DNA of 64,000 nt from Dehalococcoidia bacterium (GTDB taxonomy: Bacteria > Chloroflexota > Dehalococcoidia > Lucifugimonadales > JAGWBF01), in NCBI GenBank assembly GCA_965224415.1, contig CBDCZB010000004.1:667070-731069 (forward strand). Direction: 5' to 3'. Position 1 is the first letter of the stretch. Each line of letters begins with the position of its first letter. Positions 32,143 to 61,803 of the stretch are shown here, one piece after another. A program made the position numbers and the translations under genes. The notes beneath the pieces are model-generated. The model saw only the letters and a list, made by a program, of their open reading frames with translations, made no database searches and had not been told where the DNA came from.

Positions 32143-32249
32143 GATGTGACTCCGTCGATAAGTTGATCGGGCAGTCCTGTAGTTTCGCATTATAGCAGGA
32201 CTCTTATTCGGTGGCGGCCTATCGCCGTCCAGCGAGCCAGTGCGTGGGT

Positions 32250-32275
32250 GGTTCGACGGGCTCACCACGAACGGG
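32250..32275. repeat. repeat family C fragment (GGTTCGACGGGCTCACCACGAACGGG)
   Basis: 24/26 identical to 38367-38392. Confidence 0.65.
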
Positions 32276-37873: not shown

Positions 37874-38160
37874 TATGTAATCCGTTCAGCTTCCCCTTTG
37901 AACCCCTACTGCGTGTCTTATGTCTACCTGACTGCATCCGATATAAATGTAATTATGTAATGCACGCAGACGCCTATTTTCACCCTCATGTCTCCTGGGG
38001 GTAATATAATGGAAACCAAGAATACGACGCTCCGACCGTTTAGTAAACGCGAGTCGGGGAAATAAGGGCAGGGTTTTTACTATGCCGGCTGGCAGCTCCT
38101 ACCCCTTACCGTCTGGTACTGGAAAGTTGAGATGAAGAGTAGGCAACCGGGATCCATACC

Positions 38161-38396
38161 CGCCATTCCGGCCTGTGCCGGAATCCAGGGCCGCCGGGTG
38201 TCTCGCAACGGCGTCTCCGATGGCTTCCAACTGGTTGTTTGTAGTTGGGTACAGGCGACCGGCCGGTCGCCCCTACACCAGGCCAGGGCCATGTCCCCGT
38301 CATTCCGGCGGAGGCCGGAATCCAGGGAAGCCCTCCCTCCGTTCGGCATGAGCTTGTCGAAGGGCGGTTCGACTGGCACACCACGAACGGGGCGAA
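38161..38396. repeat. cluster of REP/MITE-like palindromic elements (families A, B, A, C)
   Basis: Family A: CATTCCGGC-nnnn-GCCGGAATCCAGGG at 38164-38190 and 38301-38327. Family B: 38248-38277. Family C: GTTCGGCATGAGCTTGTCGAAGGGCGGTTCGACTGGCACACCACGAACGGGGCGAAC at 38341-38396. Confidence 0.75.
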
Positions 38397-48149: not shown

Positions 48150-48479
48150 TTAGGGTCCAAATACCGCCCGTCGCAACGTGTCGTTGAGCCGTGTCTGCCA
48201 TCCCTTCCCACTCTGTCGGAAATGGTCTGCCAGGTCCGAATCGAGTCGGATGGAGAGAAGTTTCTTAGTTGGAGCTTTCTGCCTGCCCCTCGTTCGATGA
48301 AAGCTCTCAACAACGTGTGGGACGACTTCACTGGCCGGTCGAGCCTGTTTGAACCACTCTTCGTCTAGCTCGAACGTATCCGGGTCGGCGGCGATGCCGG
48401 CCTGGATTGCGGCTTCTTCGCCGTATTTTGCGGCAATCTCGTCAAACGTCATACCAGTTATATCAGGTCGTTTGGGCAT
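48150..48479 (-). CDS. brnA: BrnA-type antitoxin (ribbon-helix-helix)
   Basis: MPKRPDITGMTFDE...KKLLSIRLDSDLADHFRQSGKGWQTRLNDTLR. The start is internal to the track ORF. Confidence 0.75.
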   Translation of the reverse strand: MPKRPDITGMTFDEIAAKYGEEAAIQAGIAADPDTFELDEEWFKQARPASEVVPHVVESFHRTRGRQKAPTKKLLSIRLDSDLADHFRQSGKGWQTRLNDTLRRAVFGP

Positions 48480-48727
48480 GAACTTCCTCTTCTCGCTGAT
48501 TGGCCCTGCGCAGACTGATGATTCGTATAACGTCGCCACGCTCCGTAAACACAAGGACGTGGAGCCGTCCATTGATTCGGCCATATGCTATGGTACGAAG
48601 TTCACCGTGCCTTTCATTCTGTCGAAGGAGCGCAGTGTCCCAATCAAAATGATAAACGGCCTCGAAAGCAACTCCGTGCTTTGCATGATTAGAGCTTCCT
48701 TATGGCTTCGTCCCACTCGTACTCAAT
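48463..48727 (-). pseudogene. brnT: BrnT-type toxin gene, disrupted (no start codon plus one frameshift)
   Basis: One frame gives IEYEWDEAIRKL-stop (48727-48689). A second frame gives SSNHAKHGVAFEAV...RIISLRRANQREEE (48699-48466). Together they rebuild a BrnT-like protein only if 1 nt near 48692 is skipped. ATT occupies the expected ATG position. Confidence 0.6.
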
Positions 48728-48881: not shown

Positions 48882-48956
48882 GCCGACGTAGCTCAGTGGT
48901 AGAGCAGCGGTTTCGTAAACCGCAGGCCGTGGGTTCGAATCCCACCGTCGGCTCCA
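48882..48956 (+). tRNA. tRNA-Thr (anticodon CGU), CCA encoded
   Basis: Hand-folded cloverleaf: acceptor GCCGACG/CGTCGGC, D arm GCTC/GAGC, anticodon arm GCGGT-TTCGTAA-ACCGC, T arm GTGGG-TTCGAAT-CCCAC. G1-C72 and C2-G71 are present. Confidence 0.9.
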
Positions 48957-51214: not shown

Positions 51215-53317
51215 CTAATTCTTGACTGCGACCGTGTATTCCAGGTCTCTGATTCCCCACACGCCGGAAGTTATGTGGTCCTCCACGACGGTGGGGTCCA
51301 CGGTGAACAGGGTGGGCAGGTGGAACAGGGGCATGAACGCATACTCTTCAAACACTACGTCTCCCATATCCTGAAGAATCTCGTGCCTCCTGTCCAGGTC
51401 CGTCACCGTTGACAGCTCCTCGTAGAGGGTGTCGATGGTGTCATTCTCGAAGAACTGGCAGCAGAAGTTGACCAGTTCTCGCCCGCTGTAGAGATATATC
51501 TGGGCGTTGCTCGGCTCCTCCCATCGGCCAGCGTTGTCCATCCAGGCCACGCCTCCCCAAGACGCAGTCCTGAAGGCCGCGTTGTAGCTGGCGTGCTCCC
51601 TGACTTCCGTTCCATCGTCGACCGGTATGCCGATTTCCTTCCAGTAGTTGAAGATGGCTTGTGCGACCTCAGGACCCTGCGGGAAGTTAGGCTGTAAACC
51701 TATCAGGAACAACACCTTGGACCAGTCCAATGGCTGTCCGATTTCCGCCTCGGCTTCCTTCAGAAGTTCTTTGGCCCGTTCTGGGTCGTAGCCGTACTTC
51801 TCCTCGAACCGCTCTTCCCACTCAGGGTTCCACCCGCGGATGGTGGGGTGGAAGGGATGCACGTAGGCCAGCTCACCTTTGCCGCCCAGTATCGTTTTCA
51901 AGATTGTCTGTCGGTCCACGGCCCGGTTCAGAGCCTCTCTGACTTTCTTATTGATCCAGGGCACCTCAGTCGCCGGGTGGAATGTGTCAGAGAAGGGCAG
52001 GTCTGGAAAAGCTCCTGTCCTCTTGCCCACAAACTTATCGGGATAGAAGGTCCCGCCGTAGAGCAGGTAGGGGTTCGAGTGCGGAATCTTGGAAGGAATG
52101 GAAATCATCCCGCCGGCGACGGCAGTGCGCTCCAAGTCCGGCGGCAACAGGGTCATGTGGATCTGACCGGATAGGAGCTCGGCCATCCGGGTGGCGGCCT
52201 CTTTGACGTTGAAAATTTGCACCTCGTCGAAGTCCGGGTTCACCCTCCAGTGTTCGTAGGGTGTTCGTTCGTGGAGGACATAGGCGCCGGACTCCCGCAC
52301 CACATATTGATAGGGGCCTGTGCCTACGGGACTGGTCGCCACAGCGGCGTCTCCCCCGACGTCCAGGTGGTCCTTGCTAAATACGTAGGTGGTGTTCCGG
52401 TTGCTCAGTATCCAATCAAAGTTGATGGTGGGCTCCGCCAGGTGGAATATCACAGTATGGTCGTCTACTACTTCCAGGTTCGGGATTACCTGGTTGTTCC
52501 ACAGAGCCTTCCGTGTCGACTGAGACTCATCCCGAGCCTCATGTACCAGCGTCTCCACCAGGTCTGCGCTGCTGAACTCACCAAAGTCCTTGTGGAACTT
52601 GACTCCCTGGCGCAGATTGAATGTCCAGGTCATCTTGTCGGCGCTGGCCTCCCAGGACTCGGCCAGCATTGGCTCCATTTGTCCCAACTCATCGTACCGC
52701 ACCAGCGCCTCGTACATGTGAACGTATTGGGGCTGATTGAACGACGACGAGCGAGTCGGGTCGTTGGACTCTACGTTTATGTCGGTGGCGACCAACAGCC
52801 TCTCTACGACGGGACTCATCATCATCATGGATTCGTCTGGCGTTGGCTCGGGAGTGGCCGTGGGAGGTATCTGGGCCACGGCCTCGGACACCGCCCGCTG
52901 GACGCCTTCGTCAACAGCGGTCCGTATCGCCGCTTCCACCTGTTCGACGGTCAGGCCCTCCGGAATCTCGGAAATGGCCTGGGCCACAATGGACTGCACC
53001 TCCTCAGCGGACAGTCCCTCGGGGATGTTGGCGATTGCAGAGGACACTATGGCCTGCACATCCTCCGAGGATAGGCCTTCAGGGATGTCGATGCCCTTAA
53101 TCCCATCGTCTACGATGCCTCGGATGCTCTGAGTCAGAGCCTCGAAGTCAACCGGCGTCGGAGTGGGCTGAGGCGTGGAGGTCGGAGACGGGGTGTTCGT
53201 GGCAGGTGGCGGTGGTGTCGCTCCGTCGCCTCCGCAGGCTCCTGCTATTAGAAACACCAACGCCAGAACCAGGGTCATGGTCCCCAGGGGATTCCGGAAA
53301 ATAGACTGTATCGTCAT
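51215..53317 (-). CDS. family-5 (peptide/nickel-type) ABC substrate-binding lipoprotein with an extended repeat-bearing N-terminus
   Basis: Signal peptide plus lipobox LIAGACGG, a PT linker, three 20-aa repeats, then the SBP_bac_5-like body. ATG 53317 follows GGAGGGAG. Confidence 0.85.
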   Translation of the reverse strand: MTIQSIFRNPLGTMTLVLALVFLIAGACGGDGATPPPPATNTPSPTSTPQPTPTPVDFEALTQSIRGIVDDGIKGIDIPEGLSSEDVQAIVSSAIANIPEGLSAEEVQSIVAQAISEIPEGLTVEQVEAAIRTAVDEGVQRAVSEAVAQIPPTATPEPTPDESMMMMSPVVERLLVATDINVESNDPTRSSSFNQPQYVHMYEALVRYDELGQMEPMLAESWEASADKMTWTFNLRQGVKFHKDFGEFSSADLVETLVHEARDESQSTRKALWNNQVIPNLEVVDDHTVIFHLAEPTINFDWILSNRNTTYVFSKDHLDVGGDAAVATSPVGTGPYQYVVRESGAYVLHERTPYEHWRVNPDFDEVQIFNVKEAATRMAELLSGQIHMTLLPPDLERTAVAGGMISIPSKIPHSNPYLLYGGTFYPDKFVGKRTGAFPDLPFSDTFHPATEVPWINKKVREALNRAVDRQTILKTILGGKGELAYVHPFHPTIRGWNPEWEERFEEKYGYDPERAKELLKEAEAEIGQPLDWSKVLFLIGLQPNFPQGPEVAQAIFNYWKEIGIPVDDGTEVREHASYNAAFRTASWGGVAWMDNAGRWEEPSNAQIYLYSGRELVNFCCQFFENDTIDTLYEELSTVTDLDRRHEILQDMGDVVFEEYAFMPLFHLPTLFTVDPTVVEDHITSGVWGIRDLEYTVAVKN

Positions 53318-53479
53318 TGCTCCCTCCATTAAACGTGGCACACTTAACGCGTTACTGCCATGGACCGCCGGTAGGCTTATTATGGAGCGTCGGTGGGGAG
53401 AGGGTTCTACTCCACGGTTGGGCGACGCTCCCCGTTAACTCTCAGTGGCTATATGTGGAACGAATAGCAATTGGGCTAT
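53318..53479 (-). promoter_or_regulatory. conserved 5' leader of SBP gene 1 (candidate cis-regulatory RNA)
   Basis: The core at 53384-53433 is shared with 61596-61645. See findings. Confidence 0.5.
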
Positions 53480-53508
53480 AAATTACGCCAACTTGACTAC
53501 CTTGTCAA
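53480..53508 (-). promoter_or_regulatory. sigma70-like promoter TTGACA-17-TAATTT of SBP gene 1
   Basis: The minus strand reads TTGACAaggtagtcaagttggcgTAATTT, nearly identical to the promoter at 61692-61720. Confidence 0.55.
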
Positions 53509-53625
53509 CCTGACAACGCGATTCGGTAATTCTCGAACATTCTCAAATGTGCGGTCGGATTACGAGCGTCGCAAAGGCGCCGAACCTGTCAATTAGTCTC
53601 GGTTGGGGTTCGGTCCAATTGGGGA

Positions 53626-57917: not shown

Positions 57918-57971
57918 ACACTCGGTCCGATTCCCAGCCTTAACGGGGTGTTCCCCATTCAATCACCCATC

Positions 57972-58493
57972 TTAGAAGGGTGGCTTGTAGCCGTAGTGGT
58001 CACAGGCGTCAGCTAGGTGGATAGCCGCAGTGACCGTCAGGTCTTCCACCGCTTCGTAAGCTACTGCCCAAAGAGCGTAGCTTCTGGCTTCGAGTTCTGG
58101 TTCGTCAGCCTTGCTGAAATACTTGTCGTAGAGAATCGCCATCTTCTCGACGTTCTCCAGCAATATCGGCTCCGGGAGATGGGGTATCACGTCCGGCTCC
58201 ACTCGGCTTCCACCAGAGGGGTCTTCTATTACGACAGTCCACCAGCGACAGCCAACAGCACCTAGAGAAGGCTTAGACGTCGGCGAAGGAGTATAGGTCG
58301 GTCTTGGAGTCGGTGTTGGCCTTCCGGTGGTTCGAGTAGCCTCTTCTCTGCCTCTAGCTAGAGAGGTACGCATGTCGTTTGTGGTTACGGTGAATGTCAG
58401 CGAGAGGTTCGGAGTGGGTGTCACGTTGGTTGTGCATCCCGTCAGCAGAATGGTCACCACTATCGGTAACCAAAGGTGGTTGTGGCTGTACAC
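57972..58493 (-). CDS. hypothetical lipoprotein (orphan)
   Basis: GTG 58493 lies 7 nt after GGGGGAG. Signal peptide with lipobox ILLTGC and a PT-rich linker. I recognise no family. The track ORF extends to 58577. Confidence 0.4.
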   Translation of the reverse strand: MYSHNHLWLPIVVTILLTGCTTNVTPTPNLSLTFTVTTNDMRTSLARGREEATRTTGRPTPTPRPTYTPSPTSKPSLGAVGCRWWTVVIEDPSGGSRVEPDVIPHLPEPILLENVEKMAILYDKYFSKADEPELEARSYALWAVAYEAVEDLTVTAAIHLADACDHYGYKPPF

Positions 58494-58663
58494 CGGTGCT
58501 CCCCCACGGGATAAGGATCGCGGGTTACAACCACAGCAACCGACAACCAGCAGCCATGGGGGAGCATATCGCTCCACGTCCTTAATTCCAGAAGCCTGCT
58601 ATGAAAACAGGACGATGCCAGTTGCTGTGGTTAACACCAGTATGCTCAGTAGTTGCTACGGTT

Positions 58664-59074
58664 TCAACAGACCTTCCAGAGTGGCCCGAGGATTCTTCCC
58701 AGCATAGCGATTCTCAGTGACATAGTTAGTTGTTCCACGAGGTGAGTACGTACCCAGCGTTCATGAATCCTGGCAAACTGGTCGCGACTCCTCCCATACA
58801 AGTGTCGTCTCTCTGGTGGAGGGATGAGAGCTTTCAGTCCCACGATGTTACCGGCTTCGTTGACTAGTCTCCACCACTTGCCCATGAGGTAGGCTGGTGG
58901 CTCCCACTCAGACGACGTAGGAACGTAAACCGTCTCGACTACCTTACCCATATGCATCTTGGTGGTTATCTCGGTTCCGTGCATCGAGAACGCTCCGTCA
59001 ATGGCTTTGTAGCCAGGGCCGTCGGAGAGAATCTCCCGACTGATACGTATCTTGTTGGGGTCAGGCATTACCAT
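58664..59074 (-). CDS. hypothetical protein (orphan)
   Basis: ATG 59074 lies 8 nt after AAGGA. I recognise no motifs. Confidence 0.4.
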   Translation of the reverse strand: MVMPDPNKIRISREILSDGPGYKAIDGAFSMHGTEITTKMHMGKVVETVYVPTSSEWEPPAYLMGKWWRLVNEAGNIVGLKALIPPPERRHLYGRSRDQFARIHERWVRTHLVEQLTMSLRIAMLGRILGPLWKVC

Positions 59075-59496
59075 CGTGTCTGTCCTTACGTAGCAGTCCC
59101 TCACCAGAGAGGGACTGATGAGGGACTGCTTAGTGTGTCAGGTTCTAGAGGAGGGTCAACAATTGGTCCCGTCCTGGATGACTTGTCTGTGTTTGCTGTA
59201 GTAGACGCCGTTAGCTAACATCCAATGGCTGCTGTCGGACTTGTAAGTGCCATTCTCACAAGGACCATCGGCGACGGCTTTCACAGAAACCTTATCTCGT
59301 TCTTCTCGGTAGCCAGGAGAACCGAAGGGCCACCACCAACAGATTTGCCCGACGCACTCGGCCTGATATATCTTGACGCTGGCTCCGATGGCAGATGGCC
59401 TGAATCCATTGGGACAAAACGTAGTCGCGACAGCATCAATCGTGCCGGGTTCGTGAAGCGACTTGTGAGCCCCGCTGAGTCTGCCTTTACAATTTT

Positions 59497-59505
59497 AGTA
59501 TACCA
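59497..59505 (-). promoter_or_regulatory. extended -10 element TGGTATACT
   Basis: The minus strand reads ggaTGGTATACTaaaattg, directly downstream of the terminator-like hairpin at 59552-59596. Confidence 0.35.
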
Positions 59506-59551
59506 TCCAAAGTATAGAGACAACGTCATCCGTTCATGCCGCTGCCACAAA

Positions 59552-59596
59552 GAAACCCCCTAGACCCCTCATCGAACGGGGCCCAGGGGGTGTTTC
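59552..59596 (-). terminator. intrinsic terminator-like hairpin downstream of SBP gene 2
   Basis: The minus strand reads GAAACACCCCCT...AGGGGGTTTC followed by TTTG, with an inner GGGGCCCC/GGGG-CCCC stem. Confidence 0.45.
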
Positions 59597-59670
59597 CTTG
59601 GTTCTAGGTGAGCTTTTGGCAGCCGCCTGTTAAAACGGGGACTGCCCTCCCCGGCGCTACTGTCCAGGAC

Positions 59671-61548
59671 TTAGTTGCACGCGGGATCGCACCAGATATG
59701 GTCCCACTTGGTGTATGTGCTCAGAACACCTGGGACCTGGAGGCCCTGTATCACGTTGTCGACGATAAAGGCCTGCTGAACGTACCACAGATTGGGGTGA
59801 GAGCTGTCCTCCACGAGCAGGTTGTTGGCCATCAAGGCCAGCTCACGCTGCCTGGCGATGTCAGACGTCGATGCAAGCTCGGCCCACAGTTTATCGGCCT
59901 CCTCGTTATAGACTCCGGTTCGAGTGGTGTGGTCTCTGTTTCCAGCTGAGTAATTCCCGACTGATACGTCGGGGATGGGCGGGCTGGCGCTCTGGGCTAT
60001 CATGAAGATCTCGTAGTCTCGTTGGTCCATCTGGGTGTTCCCCACGTTGAACTCGACTGCGTTGACGGTCACCTCCCAGCCAAGGTATTCCCTCAATTGC
60101 TGCTGCATCATCAGCGCTTCCTCACAGTAGTCGACAACCTTTTGACAGCCTATGCTGAGTTCGCTGCCTGGGCCAAGGCCAAGCCCCTGGAAAATCCTCT
60201 GGGCTTCAGCGATGTCGTCAGGATGTTTTTCGCCGTTCAACTCTCGGTATCCTGGCATATCCGCAACCAGCTCGCAGTCGAAGCTCCATGTGTAGCCGCA
60301 GGGAAGGGGAGTGCCTAACTTGTACGCCCCGCCGCTTAGAATTTGTATCATGGGCTGCCGGTGGACGACCAAGTGCAGAGCTCGCCGGGCCTCGGGGGTG
60401 TTCCAGGGTTCCCTGTCTGCATTCATGATAAAGCCAGTCACCCAGGAAGGGCCGGCGTAGTGGACGATCGCCTGGTCTGCCAACTCTTCTTCCAGTTGCT
60501 TGGCCTCGGTGATGGAAAGGCCTGCGTTGATAGTGGTGGTCATTAGGACTTGGCGCGTCTTGTAAGCCGCTGCTATCGTGCCTTTGTCAATAATGATGAA
60601 CTGGGAAACGCCGTCAAGCCACGGCGTGTTTTCCCTCCAGTAGTCGTCGTTCCTTTCCCAGTGAGTAGCTACGTCCCTCTCGAACCTGTCCAACTTGTAG
60701 GGCCCCGTGCCATTGAGAGTTTCGGGGAAGGCGAACTTGTGCAACTGCCCTTCCTCGGCGTACTTCTTTTGCATGATGGGGAACACATTCCTACCGAATA
60801 GGTTGAGGAAGAACGGCCCGGGCCTGCTGAGCCTGAATTGCAGGGTGTTTTCATCCAGGGCCACAATGTCCTCATTGTAGTTCTCGAAGTAGGGCAGCAG
60901 TTTCTGGCCGTCGCCGGAAGCAACCCCGTTAGTCTCTTCCCGCACTAGGGCTACGTCACTGAGATCCGGGGCAATCTTGGCCGTAAGGCTGAACAAAATG
61001 TCGTCCATGATCAGAGGGTCGCCGTTATGGAACGTTACGCCCTCGCGAATGTTGAAGGTGTAGATGCGGCCGTCTTCCGAAATCTCCCAGCTTTCAGCGA
61101 GGTCCTCTCTTAAGTCAAGTGGGTCTTCGGTGAGGGGATCGTACTCCACAACCTGACTCACGAGACCGGCGAGGTGGAGCTGTACACCGTAAGTGGTGCC
61201 CGGGCCCAGAACGAATACGGTCTCCGGCCCGACGTTCATGTGCATGGGAACGACGCCGCCCATCTTGCCCATCATGGCAGGAGCCTCCGTCGGGGCAGGG
61301 GCGGATGTCGGCGTGGCAGCCGCAGTGGCCACAGGAGCCGTAGTTGCAGCAGGGGCTTCTGTGGCTTCTGGAGCCTCCGTGGCGGCAGGAGCTGTCGTAG
61401 CTGTGGGAACCGTGGTGGCGACCGGAGCCGTAGTGGAGGTCGGAGCCGGCTCATCCCCGCCCCCGCAAGCGCCTGCTATTAGAAACACCAGCGCCAGAGA
61501 CAGGACCATTATCCCCATGGGGGCCCGGAACATAGACCGAATCGTCAT
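59671..61548 (-). CDS. family-5 ABC substrate-binding lipoprotein (paralogue of 51215..53317)
   Basis: The signal peptide MTIRSMFRAPMGIMVLSLALVFLIAGACGG is nearly identical to SBP 1. An A/T/P-rich linker of about 60 aa is followed by the SBP_bac_5-like body. Confidence 0.85.
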   Translation of the reverse strand: MTIRSMFRAPMGIMVLSLALVFLIAGACGGGDEPAPTSTTAPVATTVPTATTAPAATEAPEATEAPAATTAPVATAAATPTSAPAPTEAPAMMGKMGGVVPMHMNVGPETVFVLGPGTTYGVQLHLAGLVSQVVEYDPLTEDPLDLREDLAESWEISEDGRIYTFNIREGVTFHNGDPLIMDDILFSLTAKIAPDLSDVALVREETNGVASGDGQKLLPYFENYNEDIVALDENTLQFRLSRPGPFFLNLFGRNVFPIMQKKYAEEGQLHKFAFPETLNGTGPYKLDRFERDVATHWERNDDYWRENTPWLDGVSQFIIIDKGTIAAAYKTRQVLMTTTINAGLSITEAKQLEEELADQAIVHYAGPSWVTGFIMNADREPWNTPEARRALHLVVHRQPMIQILSGGAYKLGTPLPCGYTWSFDCELVADMPGYRELNGEKHPDDIAEAQRIFQGLGLGPGSELSIGCQKVVDYCEEALMMQQQLREYLGWEVTVNAVEFNVGNTQMDQRDYEIFMIAQSASPPIPDVSVGNYSAGNRDHTTRTGVYNEEADKLWAELASTSDIARQRELALMANNLLVEDSSHPNLWYVQQAFIVDNVIQGLQVPGVLSTYTKWDHIWCDPACN

Positions 61549-61691
61549 TACTCCCTCCAACAATAAATACCACGCGTTTAACGCACTGCCATCACGGAGC
61601 ATCGGTGGGGAGGAGGTCTATGTCCCGGGTTGGGCCACGCTCCCCGCCAACTCGCAATCGCCGTGGATACACCCGATATCAATCGCAATAT
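61549..61691 (-). promoter_or_regulatory. conserved 5' leader of SBP gene 2 (candidate cis-regulatory RNA)
   Basis: The core at 61596-61645 is shared with 53384-53433. The SD is GGAGGGAG. Confidence 0.5.
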
Positions 61692-61720
61692 AAAGTACGC
61701 CTACTTGATTGCCTTGTCAA
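61692..61720 (-). promoter_or_regulatory. sigma70-like promoter TTGACA-17-TACTTT of SBP gene 2
   Basis: The minus strand reads TTGACAaggcaatcaagtaggcgTACTTT. Confidence 0.55.
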
Positions 61721-61803
61721 CTTAACTGTGCCGATTCGGTAGCTGTCGAACACTATGAAACAGCGCACGCTCAACGACATTGCAGTCTACCCCACGGAGC
61801 CGT

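Follow-up and report, generated by a model that had tools for sequence, protein, structure and literature searches.

Background

In Mycoplasma, the vlp and vsa lipoprotein families have a common conserved 5' region and signal peptide. Structured 5' untranslated regions (UTRs) which stabilise a transcript, or which carry leader elements resembling the Shine-Dalgarno (SD) sequence, are exemplified by the 5' stem-loops of ompA and by the STAB-SD of Bacillus thuringiensis cryIIIA. In Borrelia burgdorferi, the OspE/OspF/Erp (cp32) lipoprotein families, known for their upstream homology box (UHB), comprise paralogues with similar promoter sequences (PMC7002432). The present analysis describes a comparable unit in a Dehalococcoidia bacterium (assembly GCA_965224415.1, contig CBDCZB010000004.1, positions 667,070 to 731,069). 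The whole stretch of 64,000 nucleotides (nt) is referred to as the window. It contains two minus-strand genes for family-5 solute-binding proteins (SBPs) of ATP-binding cassette (ABC) transporters, gene A and gene B. Both are preceded by the same blocks of sequence; the mature proteins are only 23% identical. The copy of the shared unit in front of gene A is copy 1 (W1) and the copy in front of gene B is copy 2 (W2).

Like the Borrelia UHB families, this unit provides divergent lipoprotein genes of one genome with a common conserved promoter and 5' region, in mosaic copies. Four groups of SBP carry it, 23-58% identical in the mature part; the boundaries of the unit are discrete and mosaicism is found among the copies. 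The setting is different. The genes encode ABC-transporter SBPs of free-living Dehalococcoidia and lie on chromosomal contigs beside permeases and ATPases; they do not encode surface antigens of prophage plasmids. Neither antigenic nor phase variation is indicated here, and the unit includes a conserved, covarying leader hairpin. With ompA and cryIIIA it has in common a long leader, a 5'-proximal hairpin, SD-like purine tracts far upstream of the SD, and genes which are expected to be highly expressed. Unlike those leaders, its SD-like tracts are paired inside a hairpin; there is no sequence relationship. No description of the element was found in the literature.

A discrete cassette in front of two dissimilar genes

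The shared unit is probably a lineage-specific expression cassette of about 330 bp, carried by at least four paralogous SBP lipoprotein genes (groups A-D) of one ABC-transporter supercluster in a narrow clade of Dehalococcoidia, with a leader hairpin (the rod) that acts in cis. It is a discrete cassette, and consists of a dyad, a promoter-like element, a leader of 140-165 nt, a strong SD and a lipoprotein signal peptide (Table 1). In pairwise alignments, homology begins about 15 nt 5' of the dyad and stops 2-3 codons past the lipobox Cys.

A sequence-only reading of the window had described a series of blocks upstream of the two genes, and all of these are present on the minus strand in both copies. 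The promoter block GTTGACAAGGnAnTCAAGTnGGCGTAnTTTATA (33 nt) occurs at 53477-53509 and 61689-61721, where none is expected and no shuffle matched. The two core halves, GGGGAGCGTSGCCCAACC and CTCCCCACCGAYGCTCC, have two exact occurrences each, with zero mismatches, and the SD GGAGGGAG sits 2 nt 5' of the ATG in both copies. In a MAFFT alignment, conserved blocks alternate with diverged or indel stretches, including a 22-column gap; the two regions are thus not a recent duplication with uniform identity. A large gap in the region of the third and fifth of the described blocks arises because W1 has a long and W2 a short allele of a linker segment. What the sequence-only reading overlooked is that the unit extends into the signal peptide and acts as a recombining cassette. 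Its interpretation is partly supported overall.

The signal peptides of genes A and B are identical at 26 of 37 residues (70%), and one run of 20 nt is identical in the DNA. Both have a positively charged N-region, a hydrophobic H-region and a lipobox ending in Cys, as expected of lipoproteins; that of copy 2 is MTIRSMFRAPMGIMVLSLALVFLIAGAC. Judged by eye, both lipoboxes fit the PROSITE-type pattern [LIVMFWSTAG](2)-[LIVMFYSTAGCQ]-[AGS]-C.

Table 1. Positions of the cassette features and of the two SBP genes in the window (aa, amino acids; ORF, open reading frame)
Feature	Position	Strand	Description
SBP gene A	51215..53317	minus	700 aa, SBP_bac_5
Copy 1 lipoprotein signal peptide	53222..53314	minus	MTIQSIFRNPLGTMTLVLALVFLIAGAC-GG; homology ends about 2-3 codons after Cys
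Copy 1 SD and start codon	53315..53327	minus	SD GGAGGGAG 53320-53327; ATG 53315-53317
Copy 1 linker	53328..53378	minus	'long' allele, 51 nt; small hairpin GGCA...UGCC; mini-ORF ATGGCAGTAACGCGTTAA
Copy 1 leader rod	53379..53446	minus	P1 GAGAGU 53438-53443 with ACGCUC 53385-53390; apical loop variable
Copy 1 rod, helix P2	53428-53433 with 53395-53400	minus	GGGGAG with CUCCCC
Copy 1 hairpin P0	53448..53468	minus	GCUAU...AUAGC, near 5' end; sequence differs between groups; weakly supported
Copy 1 promoter-like element	53480..53508	minus	-35 TTGACA 53503-53508; 17-nt spacer; -10 TAATTT 53480-53485
Copy 1 dyad	53522..53537	minus	TTCGAGAATTACCGAA; 12/16 positions symmetric; centre about -57 from putative transcription start
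SBP gene B	59671..61548	minus	625 aa, SBP_bac_5; signal peptide common with gene A
Copy 2 SD and start codon	61546..61558	minus	SD GGAGGGAG 61551-61558; ATG 61546-61548
Copy 2 linker	61559..61590	minus	'short' allele, 32 nt; hairpin GUGCGUUAAACGCGU, then U-rich tract
Copy 2 leader rod	61591..61658	minus	P1 weakened, GCGAGU/AUGCUC; P2 GGGGAG/CUCCCC intact
Copy 2 promoter-like element	61692..61720	minus	TTGACA 61715-61720; 17 nt; TACTTT 61692-61697
Copy 2 dyad	61735..61750	minus	TTCGACAGCTACCGAA
Linker mini-ORF	53344-53361 and 61578-61592	minus	in linker of both copies and most short-linker relatives

Distribution among relatives

Cassette copies were drawn from the window, from four GTDB Dehalococcoidia metagenome-assembled genomes and from ENA contigs, using pattern scans and protein-guided look-ups. 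These gave 21 copies in at least five relatives, every copy preceding an SBP gene, and the upstream regions noted in the window are thus conserved outside this genome. There are 3-4 copies per genome, all within one narrow clade. According to the identity of the mature proteins, the SBPs form four groups: A (including W1), B (including W2), C (about 58% identical to A) and D (about 51% identical to A). At loci with several cassettes, all have the same orientation, and the order is D then C (L224, L090) or C, B then A (L081, a syntenic ENA scaffold with three cassettes). Genes for permeases, ATPases, aldolase, lactonase and monooxygenase lie between the cassettes.

The cassette is absent from two related genes which have an unrelated upstream region and signal peptide: L001, a sister paralogue of B (56% identical), and L226, which is orthologous to A (76% identical) and comes from a more distant relative. 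The 69%-identical P0003 was also judged to lack it, by the signal peptide only. Searches with the exact core pattern gave 0 matches in GTDB genomes because the relatives differ in the core. A loose promoter pattern gave chance matches in AT-rich genomes, with no family member among the matches listed; a tighter promoter pattern recovered cassette copies in GTDB genomes. A scan of JGI metagenomes found no cassette member and two chance matches only. When a signal-peptide profile was used to search for other protein families with the cassette, one group D fragment and one weak match were the only results.

One relative may carry a remnant. At L086:2032-2073 and downstream (CBDEGP010000002.1), a promoter of the group C type and about 14 nt of leader are fused to the last 60 or so SBP codons (...RDMEYIVTVKNR*); this looks like an internally deleted SBP pseudogene which has kept the cassette front.

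Selection and recombination

Fourfold degenerate sites of gene A in W1 are 0.48-0.54 identical to those of the orthologues in R1, L222, L221 and L086, which is near saturation. Among W1, R1 and L086, identity is 0.94-0.97 over the 32 stem positions of the leader core, 0.59-0.78 in the apical loop, 0.38-0.75 in the P0 region and 0.27-0.59 in the linker. Since the stems and the promoter hexamers are kept while fourfold sites are near saturation, the blocks are constrained and not merely young. The pattern points to purifying selection on promoter hexamers, leader stems and SD alike.

Fourfold sites also differ between the two genes. For the same genome pairs (window, OZ244780.1, OZ240207.1), identity is 0.91-0.92 in gene B and 0.74-0.78 in gene A. 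This hints that gene B was recently exchanged laterally, or that local rates are very different.

Groups A and B have the most distant proteins, yet their cassettes are the most similar; C is closer to A in protein and has a more diverged cassette. Nearest neighbours of the cassettes switch from segment to segment. The A cassette of L221 resembles B copies from the dyad as far as P0, and A copies from the rod on; the B cassette of L092 has an R2-like 5' end and a W2-like 3' end; for the A copy of L086, the nearest linker and signal-peptide DNA is found in B copies. In L221, the hybrid B/A cassette (L221:2811-3003) stands where exactly 6.6 kb between the B and A cassettes of L081 (L081:9524-16336) is missing. 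The missing DNA comprises the B SBP, two permeases, a luciferase-like monooxygenase and a lactonase, and the junction is inside the hybrid cassette, which is the product expected of recombination between direct repeats. Because segment-wise similarity is incongruent and 6.6 kb has been deleted between two cassettes, the cassettes must be taken to recombine. A conserved, recombining cassette is well supported by these comparisons. The copies would be kept alike by purifying selection together with homologous recombination or gene conversion, which would operate inside single genomes as well as between them.

Promoter-like element and dyad

TTGACA and TAMTTT, separated by exactly 17 nt, are found at both sites in the window, as the sequence-only reading had proposed for its promoter. 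All 19 copies compared have TTGACAA and TAnTTTATA without change; a further copy, L082, has TACCTTATA. The spacer is 18 nt instead of 17 in L086 and in groups C and D. Relative to a sigma-70-type consensus, the -35 matches at 6/6 positions and the -10 (TAMTTT) at 3/6, with T1, A2 and T6 kept. The element is a putative promoter; its function is suggested by the invariance of the hexamers while neutral sites are about 50% identical.

The dyad TTCGnnAnnTnnCGAA has only two sites in the window when searched as TTCGNNANNTNNCGAA, both in the cassettes, where 0.08 are expected. It corresponds to the TTCGGTA-n5-TCGAA palindrome of the sequence-only reading, and is separated from the -35 downstream of it by 13 and 14 nt in the two copies. 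Its centre is AATT in copy 1 and AGCT in copy 2; the change is symmetric and both versions are palindromic. The dyad is intact in 9 of 12 A and B cassettes and degenerate in the other three (those of R1, L222 and L086); groups C and D lack it. It is the left half-site that is lost in R1 and L222. The dyad is a plausible candidate for a protein site, either for a transcription factor or of UP-like type. No regulator gene was recognised near the cassettes among the proteins of the window.

The leader RNA

The leader would be arranged, from its 5' end, as a small hairpin (P0), an interrupted rod of about 16 bp, a small variable hairpin, and then the SD. RNAalifold, applied to 19 leaders, gives two nested helices: an outer P1 (GAGAGY/RCKCUC) and an inner P2 (GGGGAG/CUCCCC). 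Comparative folding favours an interrupted 16-bp rod with a variable loop, and GGGGAG/CUCCCC or its equivalent would form the inner helix of that rod. The pairing of GGGGAG with CTCCCC had been put forward from the two window copies, and is part of the structure favoured by the comparison.

The principal helix of the sequence-only reading, GGAGCGTCG/CGACGCTCC, fares differently. Its counts are right as arithmetic (9 bp in copy 1; 8/9 in copy 2, including one G-U), but in the 19 homologues only 70% of its cells are paired and covariation is not indicated, a score as high being reached by 322 of 500 shuffles; slid controls are 40-54% paired. For the model of P1 and P2, 83% of cells are paired, covariation is above all 500 shuffles and slid controls are 47-64% paired. 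The extended 16-pair rod has 77% of cells paired, also with covariation above all 500 shuffles, and slid controls at 45-53%. The 9-bp helix, GGAGCGUCG/CGACGCUCC, overlaps both P1 and P2 and cannot coexist with either; it was rejected on the pair counts. The rod is preferred on comparative grounds.

Changes at individual rod positions are informative. At pair 9-61, which varies even inside group D, 11 copies have U-A, six have C-G and one has U-G. Pair 10-60 is U-G in eight copies, C-G in six and U-A in two; pair 12-58 is G-C in nine and A-U in six. Most copies have an A.G mismatch at pair 7-63; group D has A-U there, and L221 has C-G, A7 having become C. At the position of P0, GCGUAU/AUACGC occurs in group C vs GCCUAU/AUAGGC. 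The rod is the unconstrained minimum free energy (MFE) structure of 15/19 cores, and the folding z-scores of 14 cores against shuffles are all negative (-0.3 to -4.5), strongest in groups C and D.

With covariance model R1, the sense strand scores 73.5 bits for copy 1 and 66.2 bits for copy 2, and the antisense strand 8-10 bits (8.5 for copy 1). A sense RNA is indicated, because there are many G.U cells and the model scores are strand-specific. The model finds nothing else credible in the 64-kb window beyond the two cassette copies. A miniature inverted-repeat transposable element or a repeat of the repetitive extragenic palindromic (REP) type is ruled out on this basis. No known riboswitch class had been recognised in the leader, and the Rfam scans agree. 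Rfam 15 reports only a transfer RNA (tRNA) in the whole window at the gathering threshold; searches of both leader regions at E up to 10 gave nothing, or wrong-strand small nucleolar RNA noise. The leader hairpin is a new orphan motif, and its function has to be inferred.

Possible function of the rod

The cassette would set a common high level of expression for SBP genes which are transcribed separately. The rod would act in cis on the messenger RNA (mRNA), as a stable, structured 5' UTR. It would lock two SD-complementary pyrimidine tracts onto SD-like purine tracts, and the true ribosome-binding site would thereby stay open. It may additionally serve as a protein-binding or processing site.

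Several points weigh against this account. The copy 1 core, folded alone, has the rejected 9-bp helix as its MFE structure, with an advantage of 4.4 kcal/mol over the rod. An A-to-C change weakens P1 in copy 2, whose full-leader MFE structure breaks the rod in favour of SD pairing. The covariation comes from few independent events in closely related sequences, and the structure was derived from the same sequences. The predicted effect on the ribosome-binding site is modest, with a mean SD accessibility of 0.47 when the rod is enforced vs 0.36 when its 5' strand is blocked. Conserved stems with a variable loop are compatible with several functions, of which a role in stability or insulation is the inferred one. 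At the promoter, the -10 is weak by consensus and a consensus scanner did not call it; the likely transcription start, about 7 nt past the -10, is read from the hexamers only.

A regulated riboregulator or riboswitch is an unlikely alternative. A ligand, protein or small RNA (sRNA) would open the rod, and CUCCCC and CGCUCC would then sequester the SD GGAGGGAGC, or the reverse. Such a switch would make sense of the asymmetry of the rod, found in all four groups, in which the 5' strands are purine-rich (GAGAG, GGGGAG) and mimic the SD while the 3' strands are pyrimidine-rich and complementary to it, and of the conservation of the stem sequence itself, beyond pairing. CGCUCC has three candidate partners, of which GGAGCR lies at the SD and the other two are GAGAGU and GGAGCG. 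In folds with the 5' strand blocked, the SD pairs with the freed pyrimidine strand of the rod in groups A-C (mean 0.39), and the pairing probability reaches 0.87 in group B copies. In copy 2 and L089, the unconstrained full-leader fold already pairs the SD with the 3' strand of the rod.

However, the duplex of the SD region with the 3' strand has an energy of -8 to -17 kcal/mol, the same as when the strand is replaced by its mononucleotide shuffles; the pairing within the rod is far stronger, at -18 to -30 kcal/mol. The sequence-only reading had noted that the CTC(T/C)CCCC tract is complementary to the SD; shuffled versions of the pyrimidine tracts pair with the SD at least as strongly, and group D never pairs in this way, even with the 5' strand blocked. 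The SD has no single partner that recurs across the full-leader folds. Its pairing is thermodynamically possible in groups A, B and C, but a specific anti-SD interaction is not supported, since the duplex energies are no better than those of shuffles. With regard to the mutually exclusive helices which that reading expected of a translational riboregulator, a toggle is possible, but nothing specific supports it; the alternative 9-bp helix lacks covariation. Nor does the rod resemble a riboswitch aptamer. It is unbranched, its stems are 0.94-0.97 identical, and conservation is lowest in its loop, which varies in length as well as in sequence; conserved nucleotides of the kind found in aptamer junctions and loops were not found. 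The element is like SD-sequestering riboswitch platforms and orphan Rfam motifs in its place directly upstream of a transporter gene, in having a hairpin with some covariation, and in its SD-complementary pyrimidine tracts. It is unlike them in the absence of an Rfam match, in conservation of stems and not of loops or junctions, in anti-SD pairing which is at the level of composition, and in its narrow distribution. On present evidence, a new riboswitch class is not revealed.

It is likewise improbable that the rod is chiefly a recognition site for an RNA-binding protein or for a double-strand-specific RNase, with a role in processing or in autogenous or global post-transcriptional control. 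The 94-97% conservation of the stems would fit such a site. So would the mismatches A.G (7-63) and C.A (13-57), which are kept as in an irregular helix recognised by a protein; in group D, however, the helices are perfect and have no mismatches. GGA, the kind of motif bound by CsrA-type proteins, is present in 13/19 apical loops as read by eye, but in a loop of 20-30 nt this is common by chance, and no partner protein was identified in the window.

A broader proposal, which we hold to be quite unlikely, is that the rod is the sensing or recognition part of a post-transcriptional regulator not yet described. A small molecule, RNA-binding protein or sRNA would toggle the SD-mimic and anti-SD strands and so co-control all SBPs of the supercluster, and the cassette would be a portable, plug-in front end moved by recombination.

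It is very unlikely that RNA function is absent altogether, with the needs of promoter, SD and signal peptide plus gene conversion homogenising the copies and the hairpin being incidental or a DNA-level operator: recombination between cassettes is demonstrable, sampling covers a narrow clade only and the shuffle control of pair counts is not a probability, but within-genome conversion cannot yield 94-97% stem identity at about 50% fourfold identity while loop and linker diverge, the spacing of the arms varies by at least 17 nt, which is unsuited to a dyad operator, and G.U pairs and the strand-specific model score favour RNA.

Linker between rod and SD

Among the relatives, the linker segment exists as two alleles, of 51 nt or 29-32 nt, which are spread over both groups A and B. 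A scanner calls the short linker of copy 2 terminator-like; the hairpin is weak, with six pairs of which three are G-C. A conserved attenuator-terminator was rejected: the feature is allele-specific, and is missing from long-linker leaders and from those of groups C and D. A leader peptide was also considered and rejected. The mini-ORF, ATG-GCA-GTn-(ACG)-CGT-TAA, would encode MAV(T)R*. No SD precedes it, several copies of the cassette lack it and it overlaps the small hairpin (P3); its presence is probably incidental.

Other features around the genes

Two terminator-like hairpins with U runs lie just past the stop codon of gene B, at about 59560-59670 on the minus strand: GGGGAGGGCAGUCCCCGUUUU, and CCCCCUGGGCCCC...GGGGUCUAGGGGGUUUCUUU. 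They were read by eye and the scanner did not call them; they suggest that gene B is monocistronic. The stretch between the end of gene B and the convergent permease (57918-59670) is about 1.7 kb long; in the syntenic L081 there are only about 200 nt here. Neither Pfam nor NCBIfam has a match for the ORFs within it, two on the minus strand (57972-58577 and 58664-59104) and one on the plus strand (59225-59563). This stretch may be an insertion.

Both SBPs contain repeats. In SBP A, three tandem motifs of about 20 residues, IPEGL(S/T)xE(E/Q)VQ(A/S)IV, lie between the signal peptide and linker and the SBP domain (residues about 78-130; about 52930-53090, minus strand). Relatives of these motifs are found in group C proteins and in L001, and are missing from shorter A orthologues (624-632 aa). 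The linker of SBP B is Thr/Ala/Pro-rich and is encoded by a tandem DNA repeat at 61280-61434, of which the three 65-nt copies are 66-77% identical.

Elsewhere in the window, short palindromes are repeated at 38159-38195 and 38296-38332, at 731-761 and 38247-38277, and at 32246-32275 and 38362-38391. Palindromes such as CCCGYCATTCCGGC..GCCGGAATCCAGGG and GGGTA..GGCGACCGGCCGGT.GCCCCTACA resemble intergenic repeats of the REP type. A tRNA gene scoring 77.7 bits is present at 48882-48953 on the plus strand; on the minus strand, an ORF whose product has a BrnA antitoxin domain (48150-48584) adjoins the transporter ATPase genes.

Significance

The rod is a new candidate leader RNA motif which comes with a natural series of mutants: hybrid cassettes, two linker alleles, and rods that are weakened or perfect. 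If the proposed reading is true, the locus would be a clear natural case of modular front-end exchange in a poorly studied, uncultured lineage, with promoter, leader and export signal swapped among SBPs of unrelated specificity. The cassettes, as direct repeats, would drive the deletion, and presumably the duplication, of whole transporter modules. The cassette is also a compact candidate module for expression and secretion in Chloroflexota.

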